From Candidatus Shapirobacteria bacterium (GTDB taxonomy: Bacteria > Patescibacteriota > Microgenomatia > UBA12405), in the NCBI GenBank assembly GCA_028704885.1, contig JAQWEN010000001.1, positions 651,203 through 715,202 of the forward strand: a stretch of DNA of 64,000 bases. Reading direction: 5' to 3'. The notes under the pieces are model-generated. The model saw nothing but the letters and a program-made list of their open reading frames with translations, did no database searches and was not told the DNA's origin. Below are positions 3,913 to 43,717 of this stretch, one piece after another. A program made the position numbers and the translations under genes. The stretch's first letter is position 1. Each line of letters starts with the position of its first letter.

Positions 3913-3949
3913 TTGTAACCAAAAACCCTCCGATGTTTTTCGGAGGGTT
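3913..3949 (-). terminator. rho-independent terminator downstream of pnp
   Basis: Hairpin aaccctccg-N8-cggagggtt (3924-3949) followed on the minus strand by a T-run (revcomp of ttgtaaccaaaaa). Confidence 0.6.
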
Positions 3950-9276: not shown

Positions 9277-9327
9277 ATTTGATTTTAAGGAATAAATCCC
9301 TCTAAATCTCCCTTTGATAAGGAAGAT

Positions 9328-10308
9328 TTATTCTTGGGTTAATTTAATTTCGAGACCAACCAATTGACCAGCCAAGCGAACGTTTTCGCCACCGCCACCA
9401 ATAGCCAAAGCTAATTGGGATTCGGGAACTGTAACGTTGGCATAATTCTTACCGACTTCAATAACTTTGACGTTTTGAGCTGGAGAAAGAGCTTGAGCAA
9501 TAAATTGATTTAAATTTTGAGAGAAAGCGACCACATCGACTTTTTCGTCGGTGGGCAATTCGCTTAAAATGGCCTGGATTCGAGAACCTTTTTGGCCAAT
9601 ACAAGAACCGACAGGATCAATACCCGGCTGATTTGAAGAAACGGCAACTTTGCTTCTTTCACCAGCAGTTCGAGCTATTCTTTCAAGGACGACTGAACCG
9701 TTGGCAACTTCTGGAACTTCACGAGAAAATAATTCAGAAATAAAAGCATTGTCGCGTCGAGATAAAATGATTTCACTGCGACCAGTTTCGTCTCGAATAA
9801 TTTCTTTTAATAAAAATAATTTTTTAGCGCCAAGAGGAATAATTTCATTTCGAATTTGTTCATCTTTAGGGCAGATACCTTCGGTTTTACCAACACCAAC
9901 AACCATTTTATAGGGATCATTTTTGAGAACAATACAGGGAATAAGAGTGCCTATTTTTTTGGCAAATTCAGCGACAACAGTTTCTTTTTCGACTTCATGA
10001 ATTCTCTGATCGATAACTTGTTTAGCGGTCTGAGCAGCAATTCGACCAAAACCAGGAGGAGTGACGTCGGTCTTTTTTTCACCATCAATTTTATAGACTT
10101 TAAAAGAACCATTTTCTGGGGCTAATTCGGCAGTAAATTGATCTTCTTCAGAAACTTCAATACCATGTTCTTTTTGGTCACGTTTGTAGGCAGAGATAAG
10201 ACCAAACTCAATTGAGTCCAAGATAGATTGAACTTCAATGTTTCTTTCACCAGCAATTTGAGCCACAGCTGCGGCAAATTCTGTTTTAGGTAGTTTTTTT
10301 AAGTCCAT
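9328..10308 (-). CDS. nusA: transcription termination/antitermination factor NusA
   Basis: N-terminal domain plus S1 and two KH domains (IGQKGSRIQAI..., IGGGGENVRLAGQL). Upstream of infB. Confidence 0.9.
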   Translation of the reverse strand: MDLKKLPKTEFAAAVAQIAGERNIEVQSILDSIEFGLISAYKRDQKEHGIEVSEEDQFTAELAPENGSFKVYKIDGEKKTDVTPPGFGRIAAQTAKQVIDQRIHEVEKETVVAEFAKKIGTLIPCIVLKNDPYKMVVGVGKTEGICPKDEQIRNEIIPLGAKKLFLLKEIIRDETGRSEIILSRRDNAFISELFSREVPEVANGSVVLERIARTAGERSKVAVSSNQPGIDPVGSCIGQKGSRIQAILSELPTDEKVDVVAFSQNLNQFIAQALSPAQNVKVIEVGKNYANVTVPESQLALAIGGGGENVRLAGQLVGLEIKLTQE

Positions 10309-10331
10309 TTTGATCCTTTAAATATGCAGGA

Positions 10332-10356
10332 TTAAAAAAGGGGCTTTGTTAGCCCC
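10332..10356 (-). terminator. rho-independent terminator downstream of the dnaJ-like gene
   Basis: Hairpin ggggc-tttgtta-gcccc followed on the minus strand by tttttt. Confidence 0.55.
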
Positions 10357-10404
10357 AGGGTTTAAACACTGCAAAATTATTATGAGTAGATTATACCAGA
10401 AAAA

Positions 10405-11262
10405 TTACAAATCGAGCTGTTTTAGAAGGTCTTTTTGGTGAGAATTTAGTTTGGTTGGAATTTCGACGAAAAGGCGGATATAGAAATCGCCCTGGCCATA
10501 ACCATTGACATCTTTAATTCCCTGACCTCGCAATCTGACTAAAGTATTGGGTTGAGTGCCTGGTTTAACTCGGACTTTTAAAGGATCTTTTAAGGTTGGA
10601 ACTTCGATAGTATCACCAAAAATGGCTTGAGTTAGACTAATATTGAAATTAATATAAACATCATTGCCTTCGCGTTTAAAAACTTTATCTGGTTGAACAT
10701 CAATATAGAGAACAAATTCAGAAAAACGGATTTTTTGACCATCATCAACACCAGCGGGAATTTTGATGGTTCTTTTGTGGCCATCAATAGAAACTTCTTT
10801 TTGACAACCATTGGCAGCATCTAAAAAAGAAATAGAAATTTTATAGGTTTCGAGACGTTTACTTTGTCTTTGTTGACCGCCAAAAGAGGCACCAAAAAAT
10901 TGTTCAAAAATATCAAAAGGATTAGAAAAACCACCAAAATCAAAATCGGCACCACCAAAAGGATTGCCACCAGTCTGGGTGTAAGTAAAATTGGGACCAT
11001 TTTGCTGAGTGTAAGTATGACCGCCAAAACCGCCTGAAGATGGGTCAAAAGCTGCATGGCCATATTGGTCATAAGCGGCTTTTTTTTGATCATTACTTAA
11101 AACTTCGTAAGCTTCATTAATTTCTTTAAAATGTTCTTCAGCATCAGGGGCCTTATTACGATCGGGATGAAATTTAAGAGCAGACTTTCGATAAGCGCTT
11201 TTTATTTCATCCTTACTGGCATCTTTGGAGACGCCTAATAACTCGTAAAAATCTTTTTTCAT
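10405..11262 (-). CDS. dnaJ: DnaJ-domain co-chaperone (J domain + G/F region + C-terminal substrate domains, no zinc finger; CbpA/class-B-like)
   Basis: J domain DFYELLGVSKDASKDEIKSAYRKSALKFHPDRN with the HPD motif. Gly/Phe-rich linker. No CxxCxGxG repeats. Last gene of the hrcA-grpE-dnaK-dnaJ operon. Confidence 0.85.
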   Translation of the reverse strand: MKKDFYELLGVSKDASKDEIKSAYRKSALKFHPDRNKAPDAEEHFKEINEAYEVLSNDQKKAAYDQYGHAAFDPSSGGFGGHTYTQQNGPNFTYTQTGGNPFGGADFDFGGFSNPFDIFEQFFGASFGGQQRQSKRLETYKISISFLDAANGCQKEVSIDGHKRTIKIPAGVDDGQKIRFSEFVLYIDVQPDKVFKREGNDVYINFNISLTQAIFGDTIEVPTLKDPLKVRVKPGTQPNTLVRLRGQGIKDVNGYGQGDFYIRLFVEIPTKLNSHQKDLLKQLDL

Positions 11263-11318
11263 GACTCTTATTATACACAGACATCCCGCGCCTGCGGGAT
11301 GTCTGAATTAATTAATTT

Positions 11319-13232
11319 TTATTGTACAACTTCCCCTTCTTCGGCTTCTTTTTTAGAGTCGTCGGATTTTTTGGGTTCTTCAGCATTTGGCTGTTCAGTT
11401 TGAGCTTCTGGACCTGGTTGACCAGGTTGTTGCTGTTGATAAATAGCAGCGCCAACAGTTTGAAGAATTTGATTTAAATCTTCAGAGGCTTTATCAAGTT
11501 CATCTTTTTTAACATCAGTTTTAGTCAAAATTTCACGAGCTGTTTTTAATTGAGCTTCAATTTTTTCCTTATCTTCTGGTTTAACTTTATCAGCAAAATC
11601 TTTTAAAGTTTTTTCACCAGAAAAAATGGCACCATCTAATTTATTTCGACTTTCAGCTAAACCTTTCTTTTCTTCGTCTTCACGAGCATGAGCTTCAGCT
11701 TCTTTTTTCATTTGCTCGATTTCTTCTTCTTTAAGGTTGGTAGCATTTTGAATGGTAATCTTTTGTTCTTTATTTGTACCCTTATCTTTGGCAGAAACAG
11801 AAAGAATACCGTTACTGTCGATGTCGAAAGTAACTTCGATTTGAGGAGTGCCACGAGGTGCTGGTGGAATGCCATCTAAAACGAAACGGCCAAGAGATTT
11901 ATTGTCATTAGCCATTGGCCTTTCACCTTGAAGAACATTGATCTCCACTTGAGGCTGACTGTCAGCATAGGTAGTGAAAACTTGAGATTTCTTGGTAGGA
12001 ACGGTAGTATTTCGTTCAATTAAAGGAGTACGAACACCACCAGCGGTTTCAATACCAAGAGTTAATGGAGTGACATCCAAAAGAACGACATCTTTAACTT
12101 CACCGGTTAAAACAGCACCTTGGACAGCAGCACCGATAGCGACGACTTCATCTGGATTGACAGTGTTATTTAATTCTTTGCCAAAAAAGTTTTTGACGAC
12201 TTCTTGAACTTTTGGCATACGAGTCATACCGCCGACCATGATGATTTCTTTAATATCAGCTTTGGTGACTTTAGCGTCTTTAAGAGCTTTTTCGACTGGA
12301 GCAATAGTTTTTTGAATTAAATCATCAACTAATTTTTCCAATTCAGATCGAGTTAACTTTTTGGTTAAATGAAGAGGCTGACCATCTTTTTGGGTAATAA
12401 ATGGCAAATTAATTTCGGTTTCAGCAGCCGAGCTTAATTCAATCTTGGCTTTTTCAGCAGCTTCACGAACACGCTGTAAAGCTTGAGAATCTTTACTGAG
12501 ATCGACACCATTTTGCTTTTGAAAATCGTCAGTGATCCAGTTAATAATCTTTTGATCAAAATCATCGCCACCAAGGAAAGTATCACCGTTGGTAGATTTA
12601 ACTTCGAAAATGCCACCACCGATTTCGAGAATGGAAATATCAAAAGTACCGCCACCTAAATCGTAGACAGCAACTAATTCATTACCTTTTTTATCCAAAC
12701 CATAGGCTAAAGCAGCAGCAGTTGGTTCGTTGACAATTCTTTGAACATTAAGACCAGCGATTTCACCGGCTTGTTTAGTAGCTTGGCGTTGAGCGTCGTC
12801 AAAATATGCAGGAACAGTAACGACGGCATCGGTAACTTTTTCACCTAAATATTTTTCAGCATCGGCTTTACATTTCTGTAAAATCATAGCGGAAATTTCT
12901 TGAGGAGTGTAGGCTTTACCATTAATTTCAACCGAGGCAGTATTATCTTTACCGGCGACAATTTTATAAGCAGCAACACCTTGAGTTTTTTTAACCTCTG
13001 GATCGTCCATGCGTCGACCCATTAAACGTTTGACACTATAGATAGTGTTTTGAGAGTTAAGAACCATTTGACGCTTGGCTAAATCGCCGACCAATTTTTT
13101 GACTGGTTCAACAACTGAAGGAATAGTATTGCGGCCTTCAGCGCTGATGATAACTTTTGGTTTACCACCTTCCATAACAGCAACGCAGGAGTTGGTAGTA
13201 CCTAAATCGATTCCGATTATTTTGTTTGACAT
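11319..13232 (-). CDS. dnaK: molecular chaperone DnaK (Hsp70)
   Basis: [22 protein letters not shown] and the full Hsp70 architecture with an acidic C-terminus. 637 aa. Confidence 0.97.
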
Positions 13233-17309: not shown

Positions 17310-20300
17310 TTATTTTAATAAATAATGTAAATGGTCTTTGTCTTTACAGTCTTTACCGATTTCAAAGAATTCTAAATTCAAGATTTTTTGATAGACATCT
17401 TCAATTTGAGTTTTTAATTTATTTAAATCCTCATCGGCAACACTTATTTCTTTTCTGATAAAACTCTTTTTTAATTTGCTTTTTTCAATAAAATCAATGA
17501 TACCTTGATTAAATTTAAAACGAGAATCGTTTTTAATATCTAGTAATAATTTATAAAAAACAATTTGGCGATAGTAATCTCCATCGGAAGAAAGTTCTTT
17601 ATATTTATTATCAGAATTACCGGTTTTAAAATCGATAACATTGATTTTACCGTTGGCTTCTTTTTCAATTAAATCGATTTTTCCGGTTAAAGGAATATTT
17701 TTGTAAACAATATTTTCAGCGGCGAAATTATATTCAGAAATGTTGTCGTCTTTGACAGAATTCACATATTGATCATAATATTGCGTCAAAATTTTGTGGC
17801 CGTTTTCCAAACACCATTGATAATCTGCCTTGGGTAATCTTTCATTTTTTAAACTTTGTTCAAAAGTTTTTAAAATTTCTTCTTGAGATTTTTTTTGATA
17901 AAAAACGGAAAGAGCGGTATGAATAGCAGTGCCAAAACTACTAAATTTTTCCTTGTTTTGGGGAATTCTTAAAATAGTTTTGTAATAAAAACAGAGCGGA
18001 CAACGAAGGTAGGAATTTAAATGGCTGACATTAAATTTATAATGATTGGTTAAATAATCTTTTAAATATTCTGATAAATCTGGTTTTAGGTCGTGAGAAA
18101 CGTCAGTAAACTGGTAATAAGTTTTGAGAGCAGCGGTTTTGTCATTAAACTTAATATTTTCGATTAATTTAGAATCGATTTCAGAAACAAAGATGGAGGG
18201 ATTTTGATTTTTACCATTTTCTTTATATTGGGAATAAGAAAGATAAATTTGTTTTTTGGCACGAGTAAGAGCCACATAAAAAAGACGACGGTCTTCTTCG
18301 TAATCATCTTCGATACTTTTGGTAATTTCACTTCTTAGAATTCCAAAAGGTAGTTTTAATTTATTAAAATCGCGTTGTTTTTCCCAAGAATCTTCAAGGA
18401 GCCGATAAATAAAAACATGATCAAATTCTAAACCTTTAGCCCCATGGACAGTTAATATTTTTATAGAATCAGAGGAATCATAAGTGATGGATGGAGAAGA
18501 AACGGAAATTTTATTTTCATCATATAAATGAATTCGGTCAATAAATTCTTTTAGAGAGAGATCTTTTTTAGCGACAGTGTCTTTTAAAAGTTTATAAAAA
18601 GAATGAACTTGGTTAAGAGATTCAATATCGTTTTTTGATAAGCAATATTTTAAAATTCTAAATCTTTTTAGAATTTTATTTAAAACTTTTTCTAAAGGAT
18701 AATTTTCCAAATCAACCTTAGTTTTGGCAATTCTTTTACCAAATTTAGAAATTATTTGCTTTGATTTATCTGAGACGTTAAGTTTGTCAATTTCTTTCTC
18801 GTCAAAAATTAAATTACAAAGGATAGTTTTTGATTTTAAAATTTTTACTAAATCAAGAGAATTTAATTTAATAAAAGGGGCAGCCAAAATGTGATAAACC
18901 GATTCATTAAGATTGGGATTATCAACAAATTCTAATAATTTGATTATTTGAATAATGAGAGGATTTTTTAAAAGGTTAGAATCGGAAGGAAGAAAAAATT
19001 TAATATTAAAAGCCGATAACATTTTAGTTAATTCCTCAGCATCACGATTTTTACGAAGTAAAATAGCAATTTCACTCGGGCTTTGACCAGATTTAATTAG
19101 ATCAGAAATTTTTTGAGCGACATAATAATCTTCTTCAATATTTGAATTTAGAGTAATTAAATTAATCGGGTCGGGATCATAATTTTTGTTGGCAATTAGA
19201 GTTTTGTCAATGTCGGTAATTAAGTTGGCAATGCGATTTTTATTATGAGAAATGACACTGTCAGAAGAATCCAAAATAAGTTTATGACTACGATAATTAT
19301 TTTTTAAAACAATTTTTTTAGGATTATATTTTTGATAAAAATTGTAAATATTTTCAATAGAAGCACCTTGAAATCTAAAAATTGATTGGTCGTCATCCCC
19401 AACCACAAAAATATTAGGGTTATCGTAATAACTTCCCAATAAATCGATTATTTGGCTTTGGCTGGAGTTAGTGTCCTGATATTCATCGACGAGAATATAT
19501 TGGTATTTTTCCTGAAAATTGAGTAAAAGATCAGGATTGTCATTGAAAGCTTTGATAACAAATAAAATCATATCTTCGTAATCATAAAGGGCTCTTTTTT
19601 GAAGTTCTTGTTGATATTGATCAAAGATTTTGACAAATTCCTTTTGTTTAGGAATATTTTTTTCGAAATCTTGATAGAACTTGCGAACTTCATTTTTTAC
19701 TTGGCTTAAGTTTTCATTACCGCTTCTAATTATTTGCAGATGACTTTTGAGATTGAGGGAAATAAATTTAGAATTTTCTAATTCATCAAATATTTTATTT
19801 ATTTCTGAATAATTATTTTTAGTCGCCCGAATATTACTAAGTTGATTAATAAAATCGCCTGAATTTTGGAAAAAATTTTCCTCATCTTTAATTAAATCTA
19901 ATAGAGTTTCTTTTGAGATATTTTCTCTTTTGGCTAAATGAAGACAATCGAGAATACTTCTTTGATAACAATAACGATCACCCCAAGTAATTAATGGCGA
20001 AGAATTGTCTAAATGATCGATAATATTTTTAATTATTTCGATGGTTTCAAGGTCATCAATGGCTTTTAAACTAGACGAAGCGAAAGGAAAATATTGAGGA
20101 TTTGAAGAAATAATGTCGTTGCAAAAAGCATGGAAGGTACAAATTTTAACTTTGTAAGCGTCGGGGCCAATCATATCCAGTAAACGATTTCTCATATTGT
20201 TGGCGGCAACATCGGTGTAAGTTAAACATAAAACGGAACTAGGTTTAGTGTCGGTTTTGTCCAAAATATTGGCGATACGAAGGGCAATGGTTTGAGTTTT

Positions 20301-20405
20301 ACCAGTGCCGGCACCAGCAATAACCATAACTGGACCTTCAATGGTATTGACGGCCAGTTTTTGTTCGAGATTTAGTTTTTGGTATTCGTTTTGGAAATTG
20401 GTCAC
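17310..20405 (-). CDS. UvrD/Rep-family ATP-dependent DNA helicase fused to a C-terminal PD-(D/E)xK (RecB/Cas4-like) nuclease domain
   Basis: Walker A AGAGTGKTQT. Helicase motifs VDEYQDTNSSQ and VHGAKGLEFDHVFIY. The C-terminal 250 aa have a CPLCFYY... Cys cluster and a nuclease-like fold. 1031 aa. GTG start. Confidence 0.85.
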   Translation of the reverse strand: MTNFQNEYQKLNLEQKLAVNTIEGPVMVIAGAGTGKTQTIALRIANILDKTDTKPSSVLCLTYTDVAANNMRNRLLDMIGPDAYKVKICTFHAFCNDIISSNPQYFPFASSSLKAIDDLETIEIIKNIIDHLDNSSPLITWGDRYCYQRSILDCLHLAKRENISKETLLDLIKDEENFFQNSGDFINQLSNIRATKNNYSEINKIFDELENSKFISLNLKSHLQIIRSGNENLSQVKNEVRKFYQDFEKNIPKQKEFVKIFDQYQQELQKRALYDYEDMILFVIKAFNDNPDLLLNFQEKYQYILVDEYQDTNSSQSQIIDLLGSYYDNPNIFVVGDDDQSIFRFQGASIENIYNFYQKYNPKKIVLKNNYRSHKLILDSSDSVISHNKNRIANLITDIDKTLIANKNYDPDPINLITLNSNIEEDYYVAQKISDLIKSGQSPSEIAILLRKNRDAEELTKMLSAFNIKFFLPSDSNLLKNPLIIQIIKLLEFVDNPNLNESVYHILAAPFIKLNSLDLVKILKSKTILCNLIFDEKEIDKLNVSDKSKQIISKFGKRIAKTKVDLENYPLEKVLNKILKRFRILKYCLSKNDIESLNQVHSFYKLLKDTVAKKDLSLKEFIDRIHLYDENKISVSSPSITYDSSDSIKILTVHGAKGLEFDHVFIYRLLEDSWEKQRDFNKLKLPFGILRSEITKSIEDDYEEDRRLFYVALTRAKKQIYLSYSQYKENGKNQNPSIFVSEIDSKLIENIKFNDKTAALKTYYQFTDVSHDLKPDLSEYLKDYLTNHYKFNVSHLNSYLRCPLCFYYKTILRIPQNKEKFSSFGTAIHTALSVFYQKKSQEEILKTFEQSLKNERLPKADYQWCLENGHKILTQYYDQYVNSVKDDNISEYNFAAENIVYKNIPLTGKIDLIEKEANGKINVIDFKTGNSDNKYKELSSDGDYYRQIVFYKLLLDIKNDSRFKFNQGIIDFIEKSKLKKSFIRKEISVADEDLNKLKTQIEDVYQKILNLEFFEIGKDCKDKDHLHYLLK

Positions 20406-23175: not shown

Positions 23176-23180
23176 AGAAA

Positions 23181-23222
23181 CCCCTCCGCCCTGCGGGCAC
23201 TTCCCCTTGATGAAAGGGAGGA
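23181..23222 (+). repeat. GC-rich double-hairpin repeat element, copy R1 (gatA-gatB spacer; supplies the gatB SD)
   Basis: Sequence acccctccgccctgcgggcacttccccttgatgaaagggagg, with hairpins gccc-tgc-gggc and tcccctt-gatgaa-agggagg. Related copies lie at 29654, 43359 and 43676. Confidence 0.6.
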
Positions 23223-23253
23223 ATTAATTTTTTTTAAAATATTTTTTTTCATT

Positions 23254-26084: not shown

Positions 26085-27980
26085 TTAGTATATATCAGGA
26101 TCGTAGATGAGATCATCGTCATTTTTGGAATTTTTTCCATGACGATAATCGTGAATAATTTCTAAACTTTCTTCAAATTCAACTAATTCTGGTGGAATAT
26201 CAGCTAAAAATCGACTTGGTTCATTTAAACTGCTTTTGCCAAAAAATAAACGACGAGTGGCATAGGAAATATAAAGATAATCTTTGGCGCGAGTAATGCC
26301 AACATAACAAAGACGACGTTCTTCTTCTATTTCTGATTCATTAATTAAACACCTAGAATGAGGCAAAATTCCCTCTTCAAAACCAACCATAAAAACAACT
26401 TCAAATTCCAAACCTTTAGCACTGTGGAGGGTCATTAATTTTACACCGTCTCTGTTTTCTTTTTTCTTATTTTTTTCCTGGAGGGAATATTCTTGTTGAA
26501 CTAAAGTAATGTTTTCCAAAAATCCAATAAGACTAGGATGAGCGGCGGCAACCGATTTTAATTCCTTAATGTTTTCAATTCTTTTTTGATCCTCTTCATC
26601 TTTGGCATCAAATTTATCAAGATAGCCAGAATTAACAACTAATGATTCTAAAATTTGAAGAGAAGTGAGATTTTCTAAATCCATACTTTTAAGATGTTCA
26701 AGAAGAACGGCTTTTTTGCGTTTACCTAAAGCTTTTTCGATTCTTTCTTCAGAAATATGGTCAGAATCATTACTGGCAAAACGAAGCATAGATAAAATAT
26801 CTTTGATTTCGGCACGTTCATAAAAACGAATACCGCCCAATAAAACATAAGGAATACTAAGACGTAAAAAGGCTTCTTCGAGAACACGGGACTGAGCATT
26901 CATGCGGTAAAGAACGGCTATATTTCGAAGAGGAATTTTTAAATTGTCATTTATAAATTTAACTTTTTGAGCAATAAAATCAGCTTCGGCAACTTCTGAT
27001 TCGGCTTCAAAAATTTTTATTTTATCTTCTGAAATTTTTTTGGTAAATAATTTTAAAATAGGATGAGAATTATTTTTGGAAATAACAGCATTAGCAGCAT
27101 CAAGAATAATTTGAGTAGAGCGATAATTTTCCTCAAGATTAATAACTTTAGTATTTTTAAAATCGGCGGTAAAACTGACAAGGTTTCGGTAATCAGCTCC
27201 GCGCCAGCCATAGATAGCTTGAGAGGCATCACCAACAACAGTGATTTGATTGTATTTTTTGGCGAGAAGTTTAGTGAGAAGATATTGGATTTGGTTAGTA
27301 TCCTGATATTCGTCAACCATAATAAATTTATATATTTCTTGGTATTTAGCCAAAACATCGGGATATCCTAATAATAATTCGGCGGTTTTAAAAAGAAGAT
27401 CATTAAAATCGAGAGCATGAAATTCAAATAATTTTTTTTGATAAAGTGAATAAATTTTGACAGCATAATCTTGCCAAAAACCATGACTTTGGGCACTCAT
27501 TTCTTTTGGAGTTTGAAAAGAATTTTTGGCGGCTTCGATAAAATATAAGACACTAGATGGTTTAAATTCTTTAGTAGTTAAACCTAATTCATGAAGAATA
27601 TTCTTAATTAAATTCTCTTGATCATTGGTGTCATAGATAACAAATTTGGAAGGGATGCCAATATTGTGACCATCGACACGTAAAACCCGACAACAAAAAG
27701 AATGGAAAGTCCCAGCAAAAAAGGAATTAGGTTGGAGATCTTTGATCGTAGATAGGAGTTTGTTAGTACGGGTTTTCATCTCTTCAGCGGCCTTGTTGGT
27801 AAAAGTGAGAAGTAAAATTTCTGATGGTTTAGCGATTTTTTGTTGAATAAAATAAGCAACCCGATGAGTTAGAACCCGAGTTTTACCAGAACCGGCACCG
27901 GCTAATAGAAGAAGCGGCGAGCCAACATGGGTGACGGCTTCTTTTTGAGGTGGATTTAATCCTTCTAAAATATCTTGCAT
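26085..27980 (-). CDS. uvrD: UvrD/PcrA-family ATP-dependent DNA helicase
   Basis: LNPPQKEAV...AGAGSGKTRVLTHRVAYFI, VDEYQDTNQIQ and LMTLHSAKGLEFEVVFMVG. The ATG at 27980 is preferred over the TTG at 27986. Confidence 0.9.
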   Translation of the reverse strand: MQDILEGLNPPQKEAVTHVGSPLLLLAGAGSGKTRVLTHRVAYFIQQKIAKPSEILLLTFTNKAAEEMKTRTNKLLSTIKDLQPNSFFAGTFHSFCCRVLRVDGHNIGIPSKFVIYDTNDQENLIKNILHELGLTTKEFKPSSVLYFIEAAKNSFQTPKEMSAQSHGFWQDYAVKIYSLYQKKLFEFHALDFNDLLFKTAELLLGYPDVLAKYQEIYKFIMVDEYQDTNQIQYLLTKLLAKKYNQITVVGDASQAIYGWRGADYRNLVSFTADFKNTKVINLEENYRSTQIILDAANAVISKNNSHPILKLFTKKISEDKIKIFEAESEVAEADFIAQKVKFINDNLKIPLRNIAVLYRMNAQSRVLEEAFLRLSIPYVLLGGIRFYERAEIKDILSMLRFASNDSDHISEERIEKALGKRKKAVLLEHLKSMDLENLTSLQILESLVVNSGYLDKFDAKDEEDQKRIENIKELKSVAAAHPSLIGFLENITLVQQEYSLQEKNKKKENRDGVKLMTLHSAKGLEFEVVFMVGFEEGILPHSRCLINESEIEEERRLCYVGITRAKDYLYISYATRRLFFGKSSLNEPSRFLADIPPELVEFEESLEIIHDYRHGKNSKNDDDLIYDPDIY

Positions 27981-27992
27981 GGACAAAATTAA

Positions 27993-30335
27993 CTATAGTT
28001 GGTAAATCTTAGTTTTACCAGACTGAAATATAATTTGCCCACCAATTTTTATAAAATTATCTTCATTTAATTCAGGATATTTTTCGTATTCTTTGGTACC
28101 AACAAAAATATATTGAATATTATATTTTTGAATTAATTTTTTTAATCGATTAAGATCTGAACTTGATGATTCGTTTTTAGTTTCTGGAATTTCGGCATAC
28201 AGAATTAATTTTTGATTTGGATGAATTAATGAGGGATTTTCTAAATTATTAAGCGATGCAATTTCTTTCCATAAATATTCATTTTTAAGTTGTTCTTTTG
28301 AAATTTTCCAAAGTGTATCTCCAGAAGAAACAGTATATTCAATATTTTTATTATTTTCTAATGGTTCATTGTTTTTAGTTGATGATTCATAGATGGCTTG
28401 AACGTCGTCTTGGCGTTGTTTTGGTTTATCGTAACCTCCACGCCAAAGCCATTCATGAACTATCCAACCTTCAACAGTTGGAAGGCCGGTAGCGACAGAA
28501 ATTTGATTGAAAGTAGTATAACTATCACCTACTGCTTCAAGCATGACTGGTTGACCGGAAATATTTTTGTTAATCCAATCAATCGCTTTAAAATTATCAG
28601 AATAACCGTCTTTTAAGTAATTTAAACCCCACAATCCTTGATAAGTTTTTGAGCCGTAAAATGATTTAATGGCAAAATAGGGATAAATTAAATGGATTGA
28701 AAAAATTAAAGTAAAAAGAATACCATATAAAATATTTGGAATTTTGGATTTTAATAATAATCTGGTTTTGTAAAAAACATAGCCGGAAACTAGGGCATAC
28801 ATCATGAAGGCCTGATAAACTAATTTGAACATGGTGTTGGCGCGACGGTGTTCGTAAATATAAATATCCTTTAAGTAAACTAATTCGGGAATAATAATCA
28901 AAATAGTGGCGGTAATGATCAGAGCAAAAACAAAAAGATCAGAATTTGAATTATAATTTTTAATTTTTAATTTGAAATTTTTAATAAACGATAATATCAG
29001 GGGTAAAACAATTAACCAAAAACCACCATATAAAATAAACAATTGATAAAAAGCACTGTGACCATCAGAAATTCTGATACCATTAGTCATGGGAACAAAA
29101 TTTGAAGAGAAGGGAATACTAAAAATAAACCAAGCTGCAATTGTTAAGACTCCATTGATTAAAGTTTTTTTAATAGCTGATTTTCGATCATTTTTAAGAT
29201 TCAAAAAGAAAGTAAAAACAGCAAAAAGAAGACCATAAATAGCAAAATCCCAAGCATTGGTCATATAAGCAATTGACAAAACAAAACCGGAAATAATAAT
29301 AACAGGATAGTTAATTAAAGCAGAAGAAAAAAAACTTGAAGCTAATAAAAAAGCCATAAAAAATAAGACAATAGGAATGTCATTCATATGACCATGAAGG
29401 TCAGCAACGACAAAACTATAAAGTGGAAACTCGTGAATAGTTTTATCTTTAATATCAGGGTCGTGACCAATAAAACGAGTGGCGTCTGGATACCAATATT
29501 TATCGGCTGACTCACTAATAGCTTTTTTTGATAAAACTAATTTGCCATTATCTTGAATATCTATTTTGGCAATTTTATAAACTGAATGAAGATTGCCACC
29601 AAAAGTTAGAAGAAGAGCTGAAATTAAACCAGCGATGATAATTTTTGGAACAAACCCACCCGCCCTATGGGCACCCTCCCTTGACAAGGAGGGCTTTATT
29701 GTTAAAAAAACTAGATTTGAAGCAATAGAAAAAGTAAAAGAAAAGGTAAAAGCACAAACAGTGGCTATAGATAAATTGTAAGTAATAGCCGAACTAATGG
29801 TGCTTAATTTAGTTAAAACAGCAAAAATTATATGACCAAAATAATAATAATTAATAATTTCACCAGAAAACCACATGTCTTGGGGAGGTAAAAATTTAGA
29901 ACGTAGGGCTGAATTAATAAAACCCCAATCCATATATTTTTCCAAACCTTCAATATCTGAGGCAAAACCCCTAACAAAAGACCAAACAACTAGAATTGAA
30001 AGAAATAAAATTTCTTGAAAAATGAAAACCTTATAATTTTCTTTAATAATTTTTAAAAATAGAGATAAATTATTTTTGTATCTAAGAAATAAAATATTTA
30101 GTAATAAAATTAGGGCTAAGATTAAAAATAAATTTAAATTACTAAAAACTAAAATTTTAAAAACACCACCGACTAAAATTAGATAAGTTGAAAAAACAAT
30201 ACAAATAATTTTGGAAAAAATATAACCCTTATCCCAAAATTTTTTAAATAGGAAAACAGTTATTGGCAAAGTTAAAAGACCTAAAGAAAAAATCAAAAAC
30301 CACCAAGAAATAATTGGAGTTAGATCGGACAACAT
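27993..30335 (-). CDS. large polytopic membrane protein (about 13+ TM helices) with C-terminal LysM domain
   Basis: Hydrophobic N-terminal 500 aa with the YWYPDATRFIGHDPD...HEFPLYSFVVADLHGH block. The C-terminal LysM is YTVSSGDTLWKISKEQLKNEYLWKEIASLNNLENPSLIHPNQKLIL. Contains the in-frame GC-rich element R2. Confidence 0.6.
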   Translation of the reverse strand: MLSDLTPIISWWFLIFSLGLLTLPITVFLFKKFWDKGYIFSKIICIVFSTYLILVGGVFKILVFSNLNLFLILALILLLNILFLRYKNNLSLFLKIIKENYKVFIFQEILFLSILVVWSFVRGFASDIEGLEKYMDWGFINSALRSKFLPPQDMWFSGEIINYYYFGHIIFAVLTKLSTISSAITYNLSIATVCAFTFSFTFSIASNLVFLTIKPSLSREGAHRAGGFVPKIIIAGLISALLLTFGGNLHSVYKIAKIDIQDNGKLVLSKKAISESADKYWYPDATRFIGHDPDIKDKTIHEFPLYSFVVADLHGHMNDIPIVLFFMAFLLASSFFSSALINYPVIIISGFVLSIAYMTNAWDFAIYGLLFAVFTFFLNLKNDRKSAIKKTLINGVLTIAAWFIFSIPFSSNFVPMTNGIRISDGHSAFYQLFILYGGFWLIVLPLILSFIKNFKLKIKNYNSNSDLFVFALIITATILIIIPELVYLKDIYIYEHRRANTMFKLVYQAFMMYALVSGYVFYKTRLLLKSKIPNILYGILFTLIFSIHLIYPYFAIKSFYGSKTYQGLWGLNYLKDGYSDNFKAIDWINKNISGQPVMLEAVGDSYTTFNQISVATGLPTVEGWIVHEWLWRGGYDKPKQRQDDVQAIYESSTKNNEPLENNKNIEYTVSSGDTLWKISKEQLKNEYLWKEIASLNNLENPSLIHPNQKLILYAEIPETKNESSSSDLNRLKKLIQKYNIQYIFVGTKEYEKYPELNEDNFIKIGGQIIFQSGKTKIYQL
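29654..29693 (+). repeat. GC-rich double-hairpin repeat element, copy R2, located in-frame inside the 27993-30335 CDS
   Basis: Sequence acccacccgccctatgggcaccctcccttgacaaggaggg. It encodes KPSLSREGAHRAGG in a loop between TM helices. Confidence 0.55.
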
Positions 30336-30953: not shown

Positions 30954-32102
30954 GTGAAAATATTAATTTCAACACCTTATTATTTGCCTAATGTTTCGGG
31001 AATTACAGTTTATATTAATGTATTGGCAGAAGAACTGGTAAAAAGAGGACATAAAGTAACAATTTTAACCAGCAGACATGATTTAACGACAAAAAAGGAA
31101 GAAACTGTAAATGGAGTAAAAATAAGACGGTTAAAAATTGCTTTCAAAATAGGTAAAGGGTCGATTGTTCCCTCTTTTTTATTTGAATCAATAAAAGAAA
31201 TTAAAAAGCATGATGTAATTGACTGCCAACTTCCTCAGCCAGAATCTTTATGGATAGCAATTGTAGGAAAATTTTTAGGTAAAAAAGTATTTTTGACTCA
31301 TCATACTGATTTAAGTTTTTGGAAAGGATTTAAAAATAAAATAATTGACGGGGGAGTTTTTATTTGTCAATATTTAGCGGCATTATTATCAACTAAAATA
31401 ATCCCCTATACTGATGATTATGCTAAGAATTCATATTTCTTAAAAAGATTTTTTGATAAAACAGTGGCGATTTATCCACCAATCAAATTTGAGGAAAAAG
31501 AAGATTTTAATCTAGAAGTAAAGATTAATACATTGGTTAAAAATAAAAAATATGTGATTGGATTTTGCGGTCGAATTGCTAAACAAAAAGGAATTGAATT
31601 ATTAATAAAATCGAGTAAGTTATTGGATAAAAAATTAGGAAAAGATAATTATGTGATTCTGATGGTAGGACCAATAACGGTAATTGGAGAAAATTATTAT
31701 GATTATTTACAAAATAAATATAAATCAATCTTGAAAGAAAGATTTATTTTTATGGACAATATTGAAAGAAAATTTCTTTCTACTTTTTACAAAAAAATTG
31801 ATTTATTGGTTTTACCAAGTGACGACAGATTAGAATCTTTTGGTTGGGTGCAAATTGAAGCAATGAAATGTGGAACGCCATGCGTGGCGACAAATTTACC
31901 AGGAATGAGAATTCCTGTTTTAGAAAGTAAATTTGGGGAATTATTTGAAAATAAAAACGAGATTGATTTGGCTAATAAAATAGAATTGGTTTTGAAAAAT
32001 GGAAAAAAATATTACCAAAATAAATTTATTAAAAATATCGATATTTTTAATTACGAAAAAAGTTTAGATGATTACGAAAAATTATTTTCAGAAAGAGTTT
32101 AA
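30954..32102 (+). CDS. GT4-family glycosyltransferase (GT-B fold)
   Basis: 382 aa with a GTG start. C-terminal EAMKCGTPCVATNLPGM matches the GT4 E-x7-E region. The N-terminus ISTPYYLPNVSGITVY is typical of GT4. Confidence 0.85.
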   Translation: MKILISTPYYLPNVSGITVYINVLAEELVKRGHKVTILTSRHDLTTKKEETVNGVKIRRLKIAFKIGKGSIVPSFLFESIKEIKKHDVIDCQLPQPESLWIAIVGKFLGKKVFLTHHTDLSFWKGFKNKIIDGGVFICQYLAALLSTKIIPYTDDYAKNSYFLKRFFDKTVAIYPPIKFEEKEDFNLEVKINTLVKNKKYVIGFCGRIAKQKGIELLIKSSKLLDKKLGKDNYVILMVGPITVIGENYYDYLQNKYKSILKERFIFMDNIERKFLSTFYKKIDLLVLPSDDRLESFGWVQIEAMKCGTPCVATNLPGMRIPVLESKFGELFENKNEIDLANKIELVLKNGKKYYQNKFIKNIDIFNYEKSLDDYEKLFSERV

Positions 32103-42647: not shown

Positions 42648-43358
42648 ATGATTGATACCCATGCTCACTTGGAAAGATTGTGCGACATTGATAAGGGGAT
42701 TGATAAAATCATTTTGGCGGCATCAGATGTGACTGATTCAAAAAATAACCTATTATTGGGCGAAATATATCCAGATAAATTATTGGTAAGTGTAGGTATT
42801 CACCCAATGGAAAGCCAAGACTCCCCTGCTAAACTTGAAAAAATAGTTGAGGAAAATTATCAAAAAATTGGGGCAATTGGTGAATGTGGATTAGATTTCT
42901 CGGGTGAATTTGATAAAGAGAAGCAGATTATTGTTTTTAAAAAACAAATAGAATTGGCTCAAAAATATAAATTACCCTTAATCATTCATGCCAGAAAAGC
43001 AGTTGATGAAGTAGTGGAAATTTTAAAAGAATATAAGGATTTATCCGGAGTATTTCATTGTTATGCCGGTGGTAATAAAAGAATTAAAAAAATATTAGAT
43101 CTGGGATTTTATTTTGGAATTGACGGAAATTTGACTTATGAAGCGGGGTTGGAAGAAGTTGTGAAAAATATACCTAAAGATAGGCTGGTTTTAGAAACTG
43201 ATTCCCCTTATTTAACACCAGTACCATTTAGAGGTGAAATTAATAGTCCAAAAAATGTGGAATATATTTATAAAAAAGTGGCGGAAATTTGGGATTTAAG
43301 TTTTGAAGAAACAGAAAAAATAGTTGACGGAAATGCAAAAAGATTATTTGGTTTTTAA
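42648..43358 (+). CDS. tatD: TatD-family metal-dependent DNase/hydrolase
   Basis: MIDTHAHLE, GECGLDF and the conserved His/Asp/Glu pattern of TatD. 236 aa. Directly downstream of metG, as in many bacteria. Confidence 0.9.
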   Translation: MIDTHAHLERLCDIDKGIDKIILAASDVTDSKNNLLLGEIYPDKLLVSVGIHPMESQDSPAKLEKIVEENYQKIGAIGECGLDFSGEFDKEKQIIVFKKQIELAQKYKLPLIIHARKAVDEVVEILKEYKDLSGVFHCYAGGNKRIKKILDLGFYFGIDGNLTYEAGLEEVVKNIPKDRLVLETDSPYLTPVPFRGEINSPKNVEYIYKKVAEIWDLSFEETEKIVDGNAKRLFGF

Positions 43359-43403
43359 ACCCCTCTCTGGATAAACCGGCATCTCCCCTTGATAAAGGGG
43401 AAA
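43359..43403 (+). repeat. GC-rich hairpin repeat element, copy R3 (acts as convergent terminator after tatD)
   Basis: Sequence acccctctctggataaaccggcatctccccttgataaaggggaaa followed by a T-run. Hairpin tcccctt-gataa-aggggaa. Confidence 0.6.
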
Positions 43404-43405
43404 TA

Positions 43406-43648
43406 TTATTTTTGAAAGTCGGAAATGATGACTTCGAGCTCTTTAATTGATGGGTAGCGGTCCATAAAAGCAACTTCACCATCGATTAAAAGAATAGTTT
43501 TGCCTTGTAGACCCATACTGATTACTTTTGACATATCTTTGACATATTCCGGATCGTAATCAATTTGAAGACGCTGACAAGCAAGTTCGAGATTGGTAAA
43601 TAATTGCTTGCCTTGTGGAGTACCACGATCAAAAAGTTGAATTTTCAT
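43406..43648 (-). CDS. thioredoxin-fold small protein related to 'redox-active disulfide protein 2' but lacking the CxxC pair
   Basis: 80 aa. MKIQLFDRGTPQGKQ... aligns to the MKI-v-GtGCpkC family N-terminus with Cys replaced by T/Q. The C-terminus ILLIDGEVAFMDRYPSIKEL is conserved. Confidence 0.5.
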   Translation of the reverse strand: MKIQLFDRGTPQGKQLFTNLELACQRLQIDYDPEYVKDMSKVISMGLQGKTILLIDGEVAFMDRYPSIKELEVIISDFQK

Positions 43649-43675
43649 AATCTATTATAACAAAATCTCTCTCGG

Positions 43676-43717
43676 CTTCGCCGCATCTCCCTTTAATAAA
43701 GGGAGAAATTTTTTATT
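43676..43717 (+). repeat. GC-rich double-hairpin repeat element, copy R4
   Basis: Sequence ctctctcggcttcgccgcatctccctttaataaagggagaaa. Hairpins cggc-ttc-gccg and tcccttt-aataa-agggaga, followed by a T-run. Confidence 0.6.

Follow-up and report, generated by a model that had tools for sequence, protein, structure and literature searches.

How does a GC-rich repeat come to lie, in frame, within a gene for a membrane protein? In the window (the whole 64-kb stretch of DNA analyzed here, from a Candidatus Shapirobacteria genome), an intact ORF on the minus strand (27993 to 30335) encodes a 780-residue DUF2298 membrane protein with a C-terminal LysM domain. Within this gene, and in its reading frame, lies the full 43-nt element R2 (29652 to 29694, minus strand), which has a GC content of 65% compared with 31% in the 600 flanking bases. 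A sequence-only reading of this DNA had offered two possibilities, i.e., a mobile mini-element that had inserted in frame into a loop and was tolerated there, or an apparent ORF made of two genes, or a pseudogene, that the element had joined. We suggest, with a probability of roughly 80%, that R2 is a solo copy of a dispersed, mobile, GC-rich repeat of the intrastrand triplex kind that inserted into a loop of the DUF2298 protein and that has DUF559 as its candidate partner.

The host gene has the hallmarks of a single coding unit. All 780 codons are free of internal stops, the protein matches the profiles for DUF2298 (E = 5.8e-87) plus LysM, and the best DUF2298 stretch (residues 50 to 451) runs across the R2-encoded insert. 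The insert comprises residues 215 to 230, PSLSREGAHRAGGF(VP), and reads ...TIK-PSLSREGAHRAGGFVP-KIII... in context, with hydrophobic segments on both sides. In an AlphaFold model with a pTM of 0.84, it is a loop at pLDDT 62 to 65, and the flanking helices (residues 182 to 210 and 228 to 245) have pLDDT 95 to 97; the short Arg/Gly-rich loop between hydrophobic helices that had been proposed from the letters is thus what the model depicts. Because the insert falls in a low-confidence loop between confidently modelled helices, we consider, based on sequence and model, that both a pseudogene and a gene fusion can be dismissed, and the protein presumably keeps its function. All that speaks for two genes or a pseudogene is the a priori oddity of a 65%-GC block in a 31%-GC gene. 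However, filled and empty orthologs align collinearly from end to end, and filled alleles recur in independent assemblies (P0002, P0011, P0012, L119, and L120). As far as sequence can tell, this second possibility is refuted, and we give it virtually no weight.

Comparison of orthologs supports that the loop was entered by an element. Among 120 orthologs, 94 have a short loop, typically SLKKINFKK, that is 10 to 11 residues shorter at exactly the position of R2, while 26 carry an element in the same loop, with strand and frame identical in every case, and in several sub-variants. A gap of about 15 residues had been anticipated here; its position proved correct, but its net size is smaller. The DNA of empty sites reads ...AAAAAAAATCAATTTCAAAAAAA..., and filled sites have a 39- to 43-nt element immediately 5' of TTT-AAAAAA. 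Filled alleles lack approximately 9 nt of the ancestral loop, and the net length change at R2 is +33 nt. At least seven distinct alleles or junctions are present among the filled orthologs, with left junctions including TIK, KKNL, KNKVL, and NIK; element sub-types also differ, with another linker hairpin in L123, P0014, and P0025, and a hairpin-less "PCPVKG" type that reads GGGAAGGG-TTA-GGGAAGGG. The alternative that the Arg/Gly-rich segment is the ancestral loop, and the short-loop orthologs deletion derivatives, would fit the scattering of the 26 filled orthologs over the tree. However, the empty loops are near-identical in all clades (SLKKINFKK, 53-residue segment), which independent deletions would not recreate; moreover, the segment shares its nucleotide architecture with intergenic repeats of the window and of other phyla, and filled alleles vary in junction and element sub-type. 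We therefore regard an origin without insertion as highly improbable.

The loop was probably filled more than once. Fitch parsimony of the filled and empty states on the gene tree gives 21 changes (19 to 22 in bootstraps). The window allele and those of L119 and L120 have in common the 11 nt TAACAATAAAG and the 9-nt deletion directly 5' of the element, although the genes are only 78 to 79% identical overall; therefore, some of the seemingly independent fills may be one allele spread by recombination. Repeated occupancy could, accordingly, reflect one or very few old insertions whose allele spread by homologous recombination with very short conversion tracts, and that every fill has the same strand and frame agrees with this. 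A long gene-conversion tract was ruled out, because the shared stretch is just ~11 nt, and around R2 we found no extended tract in which the window allele is closer to filled than to empty relatives. Together with the at least seven alleles that differ in left junction and element variant, and the different variants that also occupy single sites at gatA|gatB and in a GT4 linker (see below), this makes spread from so few insertions rather unlikely in our view. We favor the explanation that an R2-type element entered DUF2298 where the gene encodes a short, Lys-rich loop. Survival of the gene would then be explained by three circumstances: the element is stop-free in four of the six reading frames, the net change of +33 nt is a multiple of three, and the 16-residue Arg/Gly-rich peptide is accommodated in an inter-helix loop.

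R2 has a four-part anatomy. Its sequence on the coding (minus) strand is G-CCCTCCT-TGTC-AAGGGAGGG-T-GCCCATAGGGC-GGGTGGGTTT, with the in-frame translation PSLSREGAHRAGGF. The pyrimidine (Y) arm of hairpin 1, CCCTCCT (29687 to 29693), has one C fewer than the family consensus CCCTCCCTT and forms Watson-Crick pairs with the purine (R) arm AAGGGAGGG (29674 to 29682); for hairpin 1 (CCCTCCT-TGTC-AAGGGAGGG), a 9-pair stem is predicted both as RNA and as DNA. Next are a linker hairpin, GCCC-ATA-GGGC (29662 to 29672), equivalent to the "second loop" of the triplex motif, and the third-strand tail GGGTGGGTT(T) (29652 to 29661; all on the minus strand), a mirror image of the R arm with T in place of A, so that tail and R arm match as G.G-C and T.A-T triads. 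The G-rich strand consists of a homopyrimidine arm, a pairing homopurine arm, a compact linker (in R2, a 4-bp hairpin), and a G/T tail mirroring the purine arm. With this mirror layout, the G-rich strand as single-stranded DNA could therefore fold back into a purine-motif triple helix, and this triplex may form in the cell; in R2, it would be imperfect because the pyrimidine arm is one C short. The loop sequence TTGACA was also considered as an outward promoter and, at R2, rejected, as no -10 box lies at a suitable distance.

R2 is a member of a widespread family. A search with an exact 40-mer of R2 returned only R2 itself in the window (29655 to 29694) at up to three mismatches, with no match in any of 100 shuffles, and neither this search nor generic repeat finding revealed the family, whose copies came to light through GC islands, a core pattern, and a structure-rule scan. 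The core pattern matches >116 loci in CPR, Bacteroidota, Firmicutes, Proteobacteria, Deinococcota, and Calditrichota, and among the matches listed nearly all have the same architecture, namely, on one strand, pyrimidine arm, loop, purine arm, small hairpin, and a G-rich tail mirroring the purine arm. The linker at other copies is either a short loop (e.g., of 3 nt) or one of many small, perfect hairpins unrelated to that of R2. R arms and tails occur in pairs, i.e., GGGGAGG/GGAGGGG (57), GGGAGGG/GGGTGGG (20), GGGAAGG/GGAAGGG (13), and GGGAAGG/GGATGGG (3). Among 514 asymmetric Y/R hairpin registers, 227 have a downstream mirror copy compared with 37 with a direct copy and 8 with an upstream mirror copy; in 583 kb chosen without the pattern, a perfect mirror tail is present in 31/86 registers versus a direct copy in 9, and at least 11 different arm sequences are each paired with their own mirror tail. 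R2 and its family thus have the Y/R hairpin, the downstream mirror block, and the multicopy dispersal of the intrastrand purine-motif triplex class. For the R2 sub-type, GGG-A-GGG-(12 nt)-GGG-T-GGG is a canonical four-tract G-quadruplex motif with a hairpin in the middle loop, and judged by these four G3 tracts a quadruplex could equally form; the "PCPVKG" variant is also compatible with it. However, that a G-quadruplex, or simply two hairpins, is the relevant fold of the family appears quite unlikely. The commonest sub-families (GGGGAGG...GGAGGGG, GGGAAGG...GGAAGGG, and AAGGGGAGA...AGAGGGGTT) have 2-nt tracts, the mirrored position of the A is kept in sub-families although a quadruplex does not require it, and the conserved pyrimidine arm would have no role in a quadruplex.

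In the window, the structure-based scan identified five elements, each of them on the minus strand, compared with 0 to 1 matches in 30 block-shuffles. The sequence-only reading had called R2 a copy, implying others; further elements do exist, but R1 is not a copy of R2. R1 (23178 to 23223, minus strand) is a degenerate type-I element, TTCCTCCCTT-TCATC-AAGGGGAAG-T-GCCCGCAGGGC-GGAGGGGTTT, in the 78-nt gatA|gatB spacer, and the two have in common only the 23-nt core GTGCCCnnAGGGCGGnnGGGTTT, i.e., they belong to different sub-families. In the closest relatives, gatA and gatB overlap or abut without a spacer; L198 and L201 have no element at this site, and in L199 another variant occupies it. A 7-nt ATGAAAA duplication is present at the gatA|gatB element, while at R2 no target-site duplication is recognizable. 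R5 (9296 to 9326, minus strand), TCTTCCTT-ATC-AAAGGGAGA-TTT-AGAGGGAT, lies between the nusA stop and the infB start and has a short, TM-ECO-like second loop. R3 (43358 to 43403, minus strand) is directly past the stop codon of an ORF for an 80-residue thioredoxin-like protein (43406 to 43648), and R4 (43665 to 43706, minus strand) is 17 nt upstream of this ORF, with R3 and R4 in direct orientation.

Because all five window elements run in the direction of transcription, a role at the RNA level is conceivable, i.e., the element could be kept as an mRNA hairpin stabilizer, an intercistronic Shine-Dalgarno donor, or a processing site rather than as selfish DNA. At unbiased loci, 6/6 copies between co-directional genes are likewise in sense orientation, the RNA fold predicted for R2 has -24.1 kcal/mol (z = -2.4), and in the tails of R1 and the L199 copy, GGAGG and GAGAGG, respectively, lie 7 nt ahead of the gatB ATG. 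A portable Shine-Dalgarno or translation-coupling device would suit the latter two; however, we rejected it because no ORF starts in the 40 nt downstream of 58/74 copies from low-GC genomes. Copies within coding sequences occur in both orientations, in Watson-Crick terms the mirror rule is meaningless, purine-motif triplexes reportedly do not arise with RNA, and PIT elements showed neither promoter nor terminator activity in E. coli (PMC4666352). Rfam in gathering mode gave no match across the window and only tRNAs and one L10 leader at 17 element loci; in E-value mode, only noise (E about 1 or worse) was obtained at the element. Altogether, we consider maintenance for an RNA-level function unlikely.

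Rather, we suggest that the family is selfish, mobile DNA: close relatives differ in whether a given site is filled, and the same permissive sites hold different sub-variants. In compact genomes, elements also land in frame in other genes, and in-frame copies are present in genes for PolyA_pol, thioredoxin reductase, FkbM, RimK, GT4, and Wzy_C proteins; the inter-domain linker of GT4 is a second insertion hotspot with different variants at one site. No conserved 5' flank or target motif was detected, save an A/T-rich context and a frequent TAG/AAG just ahead of the pyrimidine arm of type-II copies. Carriage by phages was ruled out, as the core pattern has no match in 2.9 million viral contigs. 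Size, hairpin, dispersal of solo copies, and an enzyme gene between inverted copies all recall REP/RAYT, and the family could be a common REP/REPIN or IS200/IS605-type hairpin repeat that an HUH enzyme (RAYT/TnpA) moves, or a MITE that depends on a DDE transposase. However, the flanks of >100 copies have no GTAG/CGTC tag at the hairpin foot, and solo copies lack terminal inverted repeats apart from hairpin 1 itself; the DUF559 cassette has elements as its terminal inverted repeats, and gatA|gatB carries the ATGAAAA duplication. Moreover, no RAYT- or transposase-like family recurs among the 116 element loci listed. Judged by these loci, we hold these known routes to be very unlikely.

The only small protein family that recurs beside elements across phyla, among the element loci listed, is DUF559 (PF04480). 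When DUF559 loci were chosen by protein only, E. coli ycjD included, elements flanked 10/10, and in several phyla DUF559 genes are bracketed by inverted element copies in a REP/RAYT-like geometry. The flanking of all these loci suggests a putative REP/RAYT-like partnership. The window holds no DUF559 gene, and the source genome appears to have one (protein P0128). On paper, TTGACA in the loop fits an outward promoter at only some DUF559 cassettes. Our literature searches on DUF559, ycjD, and Vsr-like nucleases with REP, and on repetitive elements of Patescibacteria, found nothing linking DUF559 to repeats, and a search with the element sequence strings found no paper. To our knowledge, a PD-(D/E)XK nuclease alone is not a transposase, and DUF559 genes could use the elements as landing pads rather than moving them. 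Based on gene context, we nevertheless tentatively regard this Vsr-like PD-(D/E)XK nuclease, whose gene is bracketed by element copies as RAYT genes are by REPs, as the likely partner enzyme, at somewhat less than even odds. With more reserve, we speculate that DUF559 proteins, including E. coli YcjD, are the trans-acting partners of intrastrand-triplex repeats (BoxC/PIT/TM and their hairpin-linker variants) throughout the Bacteria. They would recognize the folded single-stranded triplex, or the duplex, at cassette ends and solo copies, nick it, and drive the copying of the 40-nt elements to new locations, among them permissive loops of coding sequences that are hit recurrently and with strand and frame specificity; nicking and copying would then be the putative chemistry of insertion.

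Several known systems invite comparison. Yeast mitochondria have short, mobile, GC-rich, hairpin-forming clusters in very AT-rich DNA, one of which is polymorphic in frame in var1; in contrast to the elements described here, they are organellar, unrelated in sequence, and without a known mirror or triplex rule. The Rickettsia palindromic elements (RPEs), attributed to Ogata et al. in 2000, are reportedly small, Rickettsia-specific palindromic repeats of about 100 to 150 bp that encode a conserved peptide. Reviewed in PMC10969869, RPEs resemble R2 in that both occur in reduced, AT-rich genomes, insert in frame into unrelated genes, and add a peptide at structurally permissive places. However, RPEs share the AT-richness of their host and are not known to have a triplex or mirror architecture or a link to DUF559, while R2 has 43 nt, another sequence, and a host in another phylum. 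In compact genomes, our elements act like RPEs in that they add peptides to loops of real proteins in frame, with particular sites being filled repeatedly. For annotation, they explain many odd Pro/Gly/Arg-rich "hypothetical" peptides and N-terminal extensions of metagenomic proteins.

The closest relatives in fold are the BoxC/PIT/TM repeats, which were already known from E. coli in the 1990s and for which we know of no established function, origin, or mechanism of mobility. In this class, triplex formation was demonstrated in vitro (CD, NMR, and melting of TM-ECO oligonucleotides), while DMS footprinting in vivo was negative and duplex DNA competes; the TM-ECO consensus is CCCTCNCCC-N3-6-GGGNGAGGG-N3-GGGNGAGGG, with 9-nt stems and a 3-nt second loop, TTA or CCG (PMC4666352). 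Both families are multicopy, highly conserved, dispersed, and linked to local presence/absence variation, and both have on one strand a C-rich arm, a loop, a G-rich arm, a second loop, and a mirrored G-rich block in which A or T faces A (class II purine motif). As in TM-ECO type A, the second loop of R5 and of GGGAAGGG-TTA-GGGAAGGG in L163 is a 3-nt TTA/TTT. However, the arms here are GGGAGGG or GGGGAGG instead of GGGNGAGGG, the core is 7 to 9 nt, and the second loop of R2 (12 nt) and of most copies is a self-folding hairpin of 11 to 20 nt. This linker exceeds the limits of earlier surveys, which, as far as they are quoted in PMC4666352, were 1 to 6 nt (ITxF) and 0 to 10 nt in the work of Hoyne et al. 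(2000, J Mol Biol 302:797, as cited there) on intrastrand triplex motifs of Enterobacteria. Judged by the TM-ECO consensus, R2 is not a TM-ECO/BoxC member sensu stricto, though the two share the logic of their fold. Holder et al. (2015, NAR 43:10126; PMC4666352) reported TM-ECO as always intergenic and with no mobility gene nearby. In contrast, R2 and other copies lie in frame within coding sequences, DUF559 genes are bracketed by elements, and TM-ECO no. 9 of E. coli K-12 itself adjoins the DUF559 gene ycjD. Triplex fold logic with a hairpin linker thereby extends to candidate-phylum bacteria and many other phyla beyond the Proteobacteria. A DUF559 partnership, if true, would account for the "genomic instability" around TM-ECO, and the bracketing of DUF559 genes, ycjD included, makes a long-standing question accessible at the bench in E. 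coli.

The comparison with REP/REPIN sequences and their RAYT transposases (PMC6006769 and PMC3733652) concerns mobility. Both systems have dispersed solo hairpin repeats of 20 to 45 nt and a single-gene enzyme cassette between inverted repeat copies, and recognition as folded single-stranded DNA is probable in both. However, REPs have a GTAG or CGTC tag at the palindrome end, as described in PMC3733652, while the elements here have no such tag and a fold with a third strand, and the enzyme, a candidate by gene context, is a Vsr-like PD-(D/E)XK nuclease instead of an HUH Y1 transposase. The DUF559 partnership, if true, would resemble REP/RAYT as a system but rely on another enzyme fold and on DNA folded into three strands.

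R2 is a 43-nt element (29652-29694, minus strand) with 65% GC in surroundings of 31% GC and a window that is AT-rich throughout (25-40% GC). Its host, the minus-strand ORF 27993-30335, encodes 780 aa that are 100% identical to a DUF2298 protein from a MAG of Candidatus Shapirobacteria. On the coding strand, R2 reads G-CCCTCCT-TGTC-AAGGGAGGG-T-GCCC-ATA-GGGC-GGGTGGGTTT and in frame encodes PSLSREGAHRAGGF(VP), residues 215-230 of the host protein; four of the six reading frames are open across it. The sequence-only reading correctly described an in-frame GC-rich element here, with ends off by two bases on one side and one on the other, and offered two explanations: a mobile mini-element tolerated in a loop, or two genes or a pseudogene joined by the element. 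The ORF has no internal stops, and of its Pfam matches (DUF2298, E = 5.8e-87, and LysM) the best DUF2298 stretch, residues 50-451, crosses the insert; the gene is thus intact and the second explanation is not supported.

The first explanation is borne out by the alignment of the 120 best homologues, 94 of which lack the segment and have a short loop instead, typically SLKKINFKK. The expected gap is therefore present at this site, but it measures 10-11 residues and not the predicted 15 or so. Empty-site DNA reads ...CTAAAAAAAATCAATTTCAAAAAAATT...; at filled sites, the element lies immediately 5' of TTT-AAAAAA, and about 9 nt of the old loop are lost. In an AlphaFold model built on 76 sequences (mean pLDDT 80.8, pTM 0.84), helices 182-210 and 228-245 have a pLDDT of 95-97 and the intervening insert one of 62-65. 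By the positive-inside rule, a Lys-rich ancestral loop and an insert with net positive charge suggest a cytoplasmic location. Filled alleles recur in independent assemblies (P0002, P0011, P0012, L119, and L120), so the insert is no assembly artefact. Altogether, we consider it probable (about 0.8) that a selfish triplex-class repeat is present here as the solo copy R2 and that the gene tolerates it for three reasons: the absence of stops, a length change divisible by three, and a position within a loop.

The 40-mer of R2 occurs once in the window; its 23-nt core, GTGCCCnnAGGGCGGnnGGGTTT, is also present in a second GC island, the gatA-gatB spacer. Scanning one genome per species for the core gave at least 116 loci and, among the matches listed, these are from Shapirobacteria, other candidate-phylum (CPR) bacteria, Bacteroides, other Bacteroidota, Selenomonadaceae, Ruminococcaceae, gammaproteobacterial MAGs, Caldithrix, Deinococcus, Meiothermus, Legionella, and others. 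In almost all listed loci, the core is preceded by a pyrimidine arm, a 4-8-nt loop, and a complementary purine arm. The tail has no complement anywhere; rather, it mirrors the purine arm, and the two covary: GGGGAGG pairs with GGAGGGG (57 distinct copies), GGGAGGG with GGGTGGG (20), GGGAAGG with GGAAGGG (13), and GGGAAGG with GGATGGG (3). When the test was not conditioned on the tail (asymmetric pyrimidine/purine hairpin registers in the collected loci, A read as A or T, 40 nt), 227 of 514 registers had a mirror copy within 40 nt downstream and 37 a direct copy; upstream, the numbers were 8 and 24. Similarly, in 583 kb of Microgenomates DNA chosen without the core pattern, a perfect mirror tail followed 31 of 86 registers versus a direct copy in 9, with matches spanning at least 11 different arm sequences. 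Purine arm and tail are joined by a 3-nt linker (TTT, TTA, TGA, GTA, or CTG) or by one of many unrelated, perfect small hairpins, such as GCCC-GNA-GGGC, GTCGC-TTTA-GCGAC, GCTCCGA-AGAATA-TCGGAGC, GTCCCGC-GACC-GCGGGAC, and CCCCGAT-GAAT-ATCGGGG.

Antiparallel purine-motif triple helices follow the rule G.G-C, A.A-T, and T.A-T. The mirror symmetry of the elements (G versus G, A/T versus A) is exactly this rule; neither Watson-Crick pairing nor binding by a symmetric protein would give it a meaning. For the GGGAGGG sub-type of R2, a G-quadruplex instead of a triplex is an alternative. Rfam held nothing matching the element, and its sequence strings appeared in no paper of our literature search.

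Based on the triplex rule, the window contains five elements, compared with zero to one match in each of thirty block shuffles. All five lie on the minus strand and run in the same direction as the genes around them: R5 (9296-9326) between nusA and infB, R1 (23178-23223) between gatA and gatB, R2 within the DUF2298 gene, R3 (43358-43403) directly past the stop codon of an 80-aa thioredoxin-like ORF, and R4 (43665-43706) 17 nt upstream of the same ORF. R1 is a degenerate GGGGAGG member. R5, with a 3-nt second loop as in TM-ECO, takes up most of the 51 nt between nusA and infB and is sense-oriented. R3 and R4, in direct orientation, bracket the 80-aa ORF (43406-43648, minus strand), which has a Thioredoxin_3 match just under the Pfam cut-off (E = 2.6e-5) and a TATAAT between R4 and its ATG; the arrangement resembles a small gene cassette with the repeats at its borders. 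The tail of R1 places a GGAGG 7 nt before the gatB ATG. Because intergenic copies in the window and in the unbiased loci are uniformly sense-oriented, there is room for a side role at the RNA level, as with this GGAGG.

Other repeats in the window are of different kinds. A perfect GC-rich hairpin (ACAGACATCCCGC-GCC-TGCGGGATGTCTG region, 11276-11305) in the 56-nt spacer between dnaK (11319-13232) and dnaJ (10405-11262) lies outside the triplex rule. The hairpin CCCTCCG-ATGTTTTT-CGGAGGG (3926-3947), followed by a T-run on one strand, is terminator-like; it has no mirror tail and does not belong to the family. Several 40-80-nt direct-repeat matches (65-83% identity) link 18231-20315 with 26156-27899. 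The latter region is the 633-aa ORF 26085-27986, whose orthologues have UvrD-helicase Pfam domains, and the matches are probably due to a pair of paralogous UvrD/PcrA-type helicase genes. At 57768-60374, diverged repeats of ~261-294 nt (60-87% identity) form a long array, the probable coding sequence for tandem domains of a large minus-strand surface protein.

Comparisons of orthologous sites revealed insertion polymorphisms. In the closest relatives, gatA and gatB overlap (ATGA, L198) or abut (L201); in the window, they are separated by a 78-nt spacer containing R1, and in L199 and L200 by 76 nt containing a different variant with a wholly different linker hairpin and a tail that likewise mirrors its own arm. 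ATGAAAA flanks the insert on both sides in the window and in L199/L200. The DUF2298 loop is filled in 26 of 120 orthologues. On a neighbour-joining tree with the loop masked, the filled/empty character requires 21 changes (19-22 across 20 bootstrap trees; average 23.8 for shuffled states), and the fills comprise at least seven alleles by left junction and element variant. The window, L119, and L120 have 11 nt in common beside the element and no longer conversion tract around it. Part of this pattern may be allele transfer; the remainder must be recurrent insertion. All fills use one loop, one strand, and one frame in a protein with many variable loops, which argues for some target specificity; the shared position could reflect a target bias towards the A-tract/TTT context, or strong selection in favour of permissive sites. 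In-frame copies in either orientation also occur in genes for a PolyA_pol/CCA enzyme, thioredoxin reductase, an FkbM methyltransferase, RimK, GT4, and Wzy_C, in which the Pfam matches persist across the insert. A second recurrent site is found in orthologues of the neighbouring GT4 gene, where antisense copies at five loci (L140:851-885, L143:817-856, L150:832-862, L164:851-884, and L188:883-927) lie right after a conserved PPIK motif, in what we read as an inter-domain linker, and translate as NPSALRASPLDKGD and similar peptides; the window's GT4 gene (30954-32102) has no element there.

All-against-all comparison of ORFs across the at least 116 loci revealed that, among the listed loci, one small family (~120-135 aa) recurs beside the element in different phyla and matches Pfam DUF559, with a Vsr-like PD-(D/E)XK fold. 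The typical cassette is [AAACCCACCC-(linker)-CCCTCCC-loop-GGGAGGG]-~15-25 nt-ORF-stop-[CCCTCCC-loop-GGGAGGG-T-hairpin-GGGTGGGTTT], i.e. inverted copies with tails outward, and other polarities occur. As a control for bias, ten DUF559 genes were found by protein alone: L192 (a chance encounter in a DUF2298 locus), L197, L204, L207, and L208 (CPR), L209 (Marivirga), L210 (Vitreoscilla), L211 (within a type I R-M operon), L212 (Tidjanibacter), and E. coli ycjD. A triplex-type element lies near every one of the ten, at a distance of no more than ~200 nt and in most cases no more than 60 nt. Because element density in the unbiased CPR sample is roughly 1 per 20 kb, flanking in five of five is far beyond chance. 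It is plausible, at somewhat less than even odds, that DUF559 acts on the elements in trans, as RAYT does on REPs; alternatively, it may be a homing-type gene for which the elements serve as landing pads, and the data fit both. The literature search found no papers tying DUF559 or ycjD to repeats, and the sole solved relative found is 3HRL, a structural-genomics "endonuclease-like protein".

The source genome appears to hold a DUF559 cassette (protein P0128), and no DUF559 gene lies within the 64-kb window. In L207 (531-1319), from another Patescibacteria genome, a DUF559 cassette with flanking elements is located between dnaJ and nusA; in the window, dnaJ and nusA (9328-10308) are 96 nt apart, and this spacer (10309-10404) holds a terminator-like hairpin, GGGGC-TAACAAA-GCCCC-TTTTTT. 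In L211 (401-775), gene and element lie between hsdR-like and hsdM-like genes. Many DUF559 genes (proteins P0121-P0240 and P0241-P0360) are on very short contigs of 0.5-2 kb, which is what repeats that interrupt assemblies would produce. Several of the predicted proteins have N-terminal extensions that are translated upstream elements, e.g. SSPPGAGGEVRRGGRGG and NSPPSKGGVSLQRRGG; translated elements would explain odd Pro/Gly/Arg-rich "hypothetical" peptides in databases.

In E. coli K-12 (L203, NC_000913.3 1351039-1351830), the end of the ycjD ORF falls in a degenerate BoxC-like hairpin, CCCTCTCCC-TGAAAGA-GCGAGGGGG, and a full TM-ECO lies ~170 nt downstream; between them is a partial duplication of ycjD's own 3' end (GGAGACGGTGCTGGAGAATATTC...). 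Supplementary Table S2 of Holder et al. places TM-ECO no. 9 between fabI and ycjD without comment (PMC4666352). The consistent bracketing of DUF559 nuclease genes by elements, ycjD included, is previously unreported.

By itself, the in-frame insertion of R2 is a fresh example of an already known phenomenon, and in these compact genomes the element family behaves like the Rickettsia RPEs. Interest is raised by the recurrent insertions at one codon position, by the DUF559 bracketing that extends to E. coli ycjD, and by what the element is structurally, namely a BoxC/PIT/TM variant with a hairpin linker that occurs in CPR and many other phyla. Hoyne et al. (2000) rediscovered BoxC under the name "potential intrastrand triplex" (PIT) elements, and Holder et al. 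(2015) studied it as TM-ECO, with the consensus CCCTCNCCC-N3-6-GGGNGAGGG-N3-GGGNGAGGG; E. coli K-12 has 23 copies, and 262 proteobacterial genomes have 3,610 (PMC4666352). The isolated TM-ECO strand forms a stable triplex in vitro, the triplex was not seen in vivo even in E. coli, and RNA is stated to be unable to form purine-motif triplexes; the paper describes the copies as "always located intergenically", reports neither promoter nor terminator activity for them, and found raised local variability between strains (PMC4666352). The R2 family follows the same triplex logic. However, R2 does not match the TM-ECO consensus, and its 12-nt, hairpin-containing second loop exceeds the limits of the published searches (1-6 nt and 0-10 nt); therefore, we file R2 as a new hairpin-linker variant of the BoxC/PIT/TM structural class rather than as a TM-ECO member.
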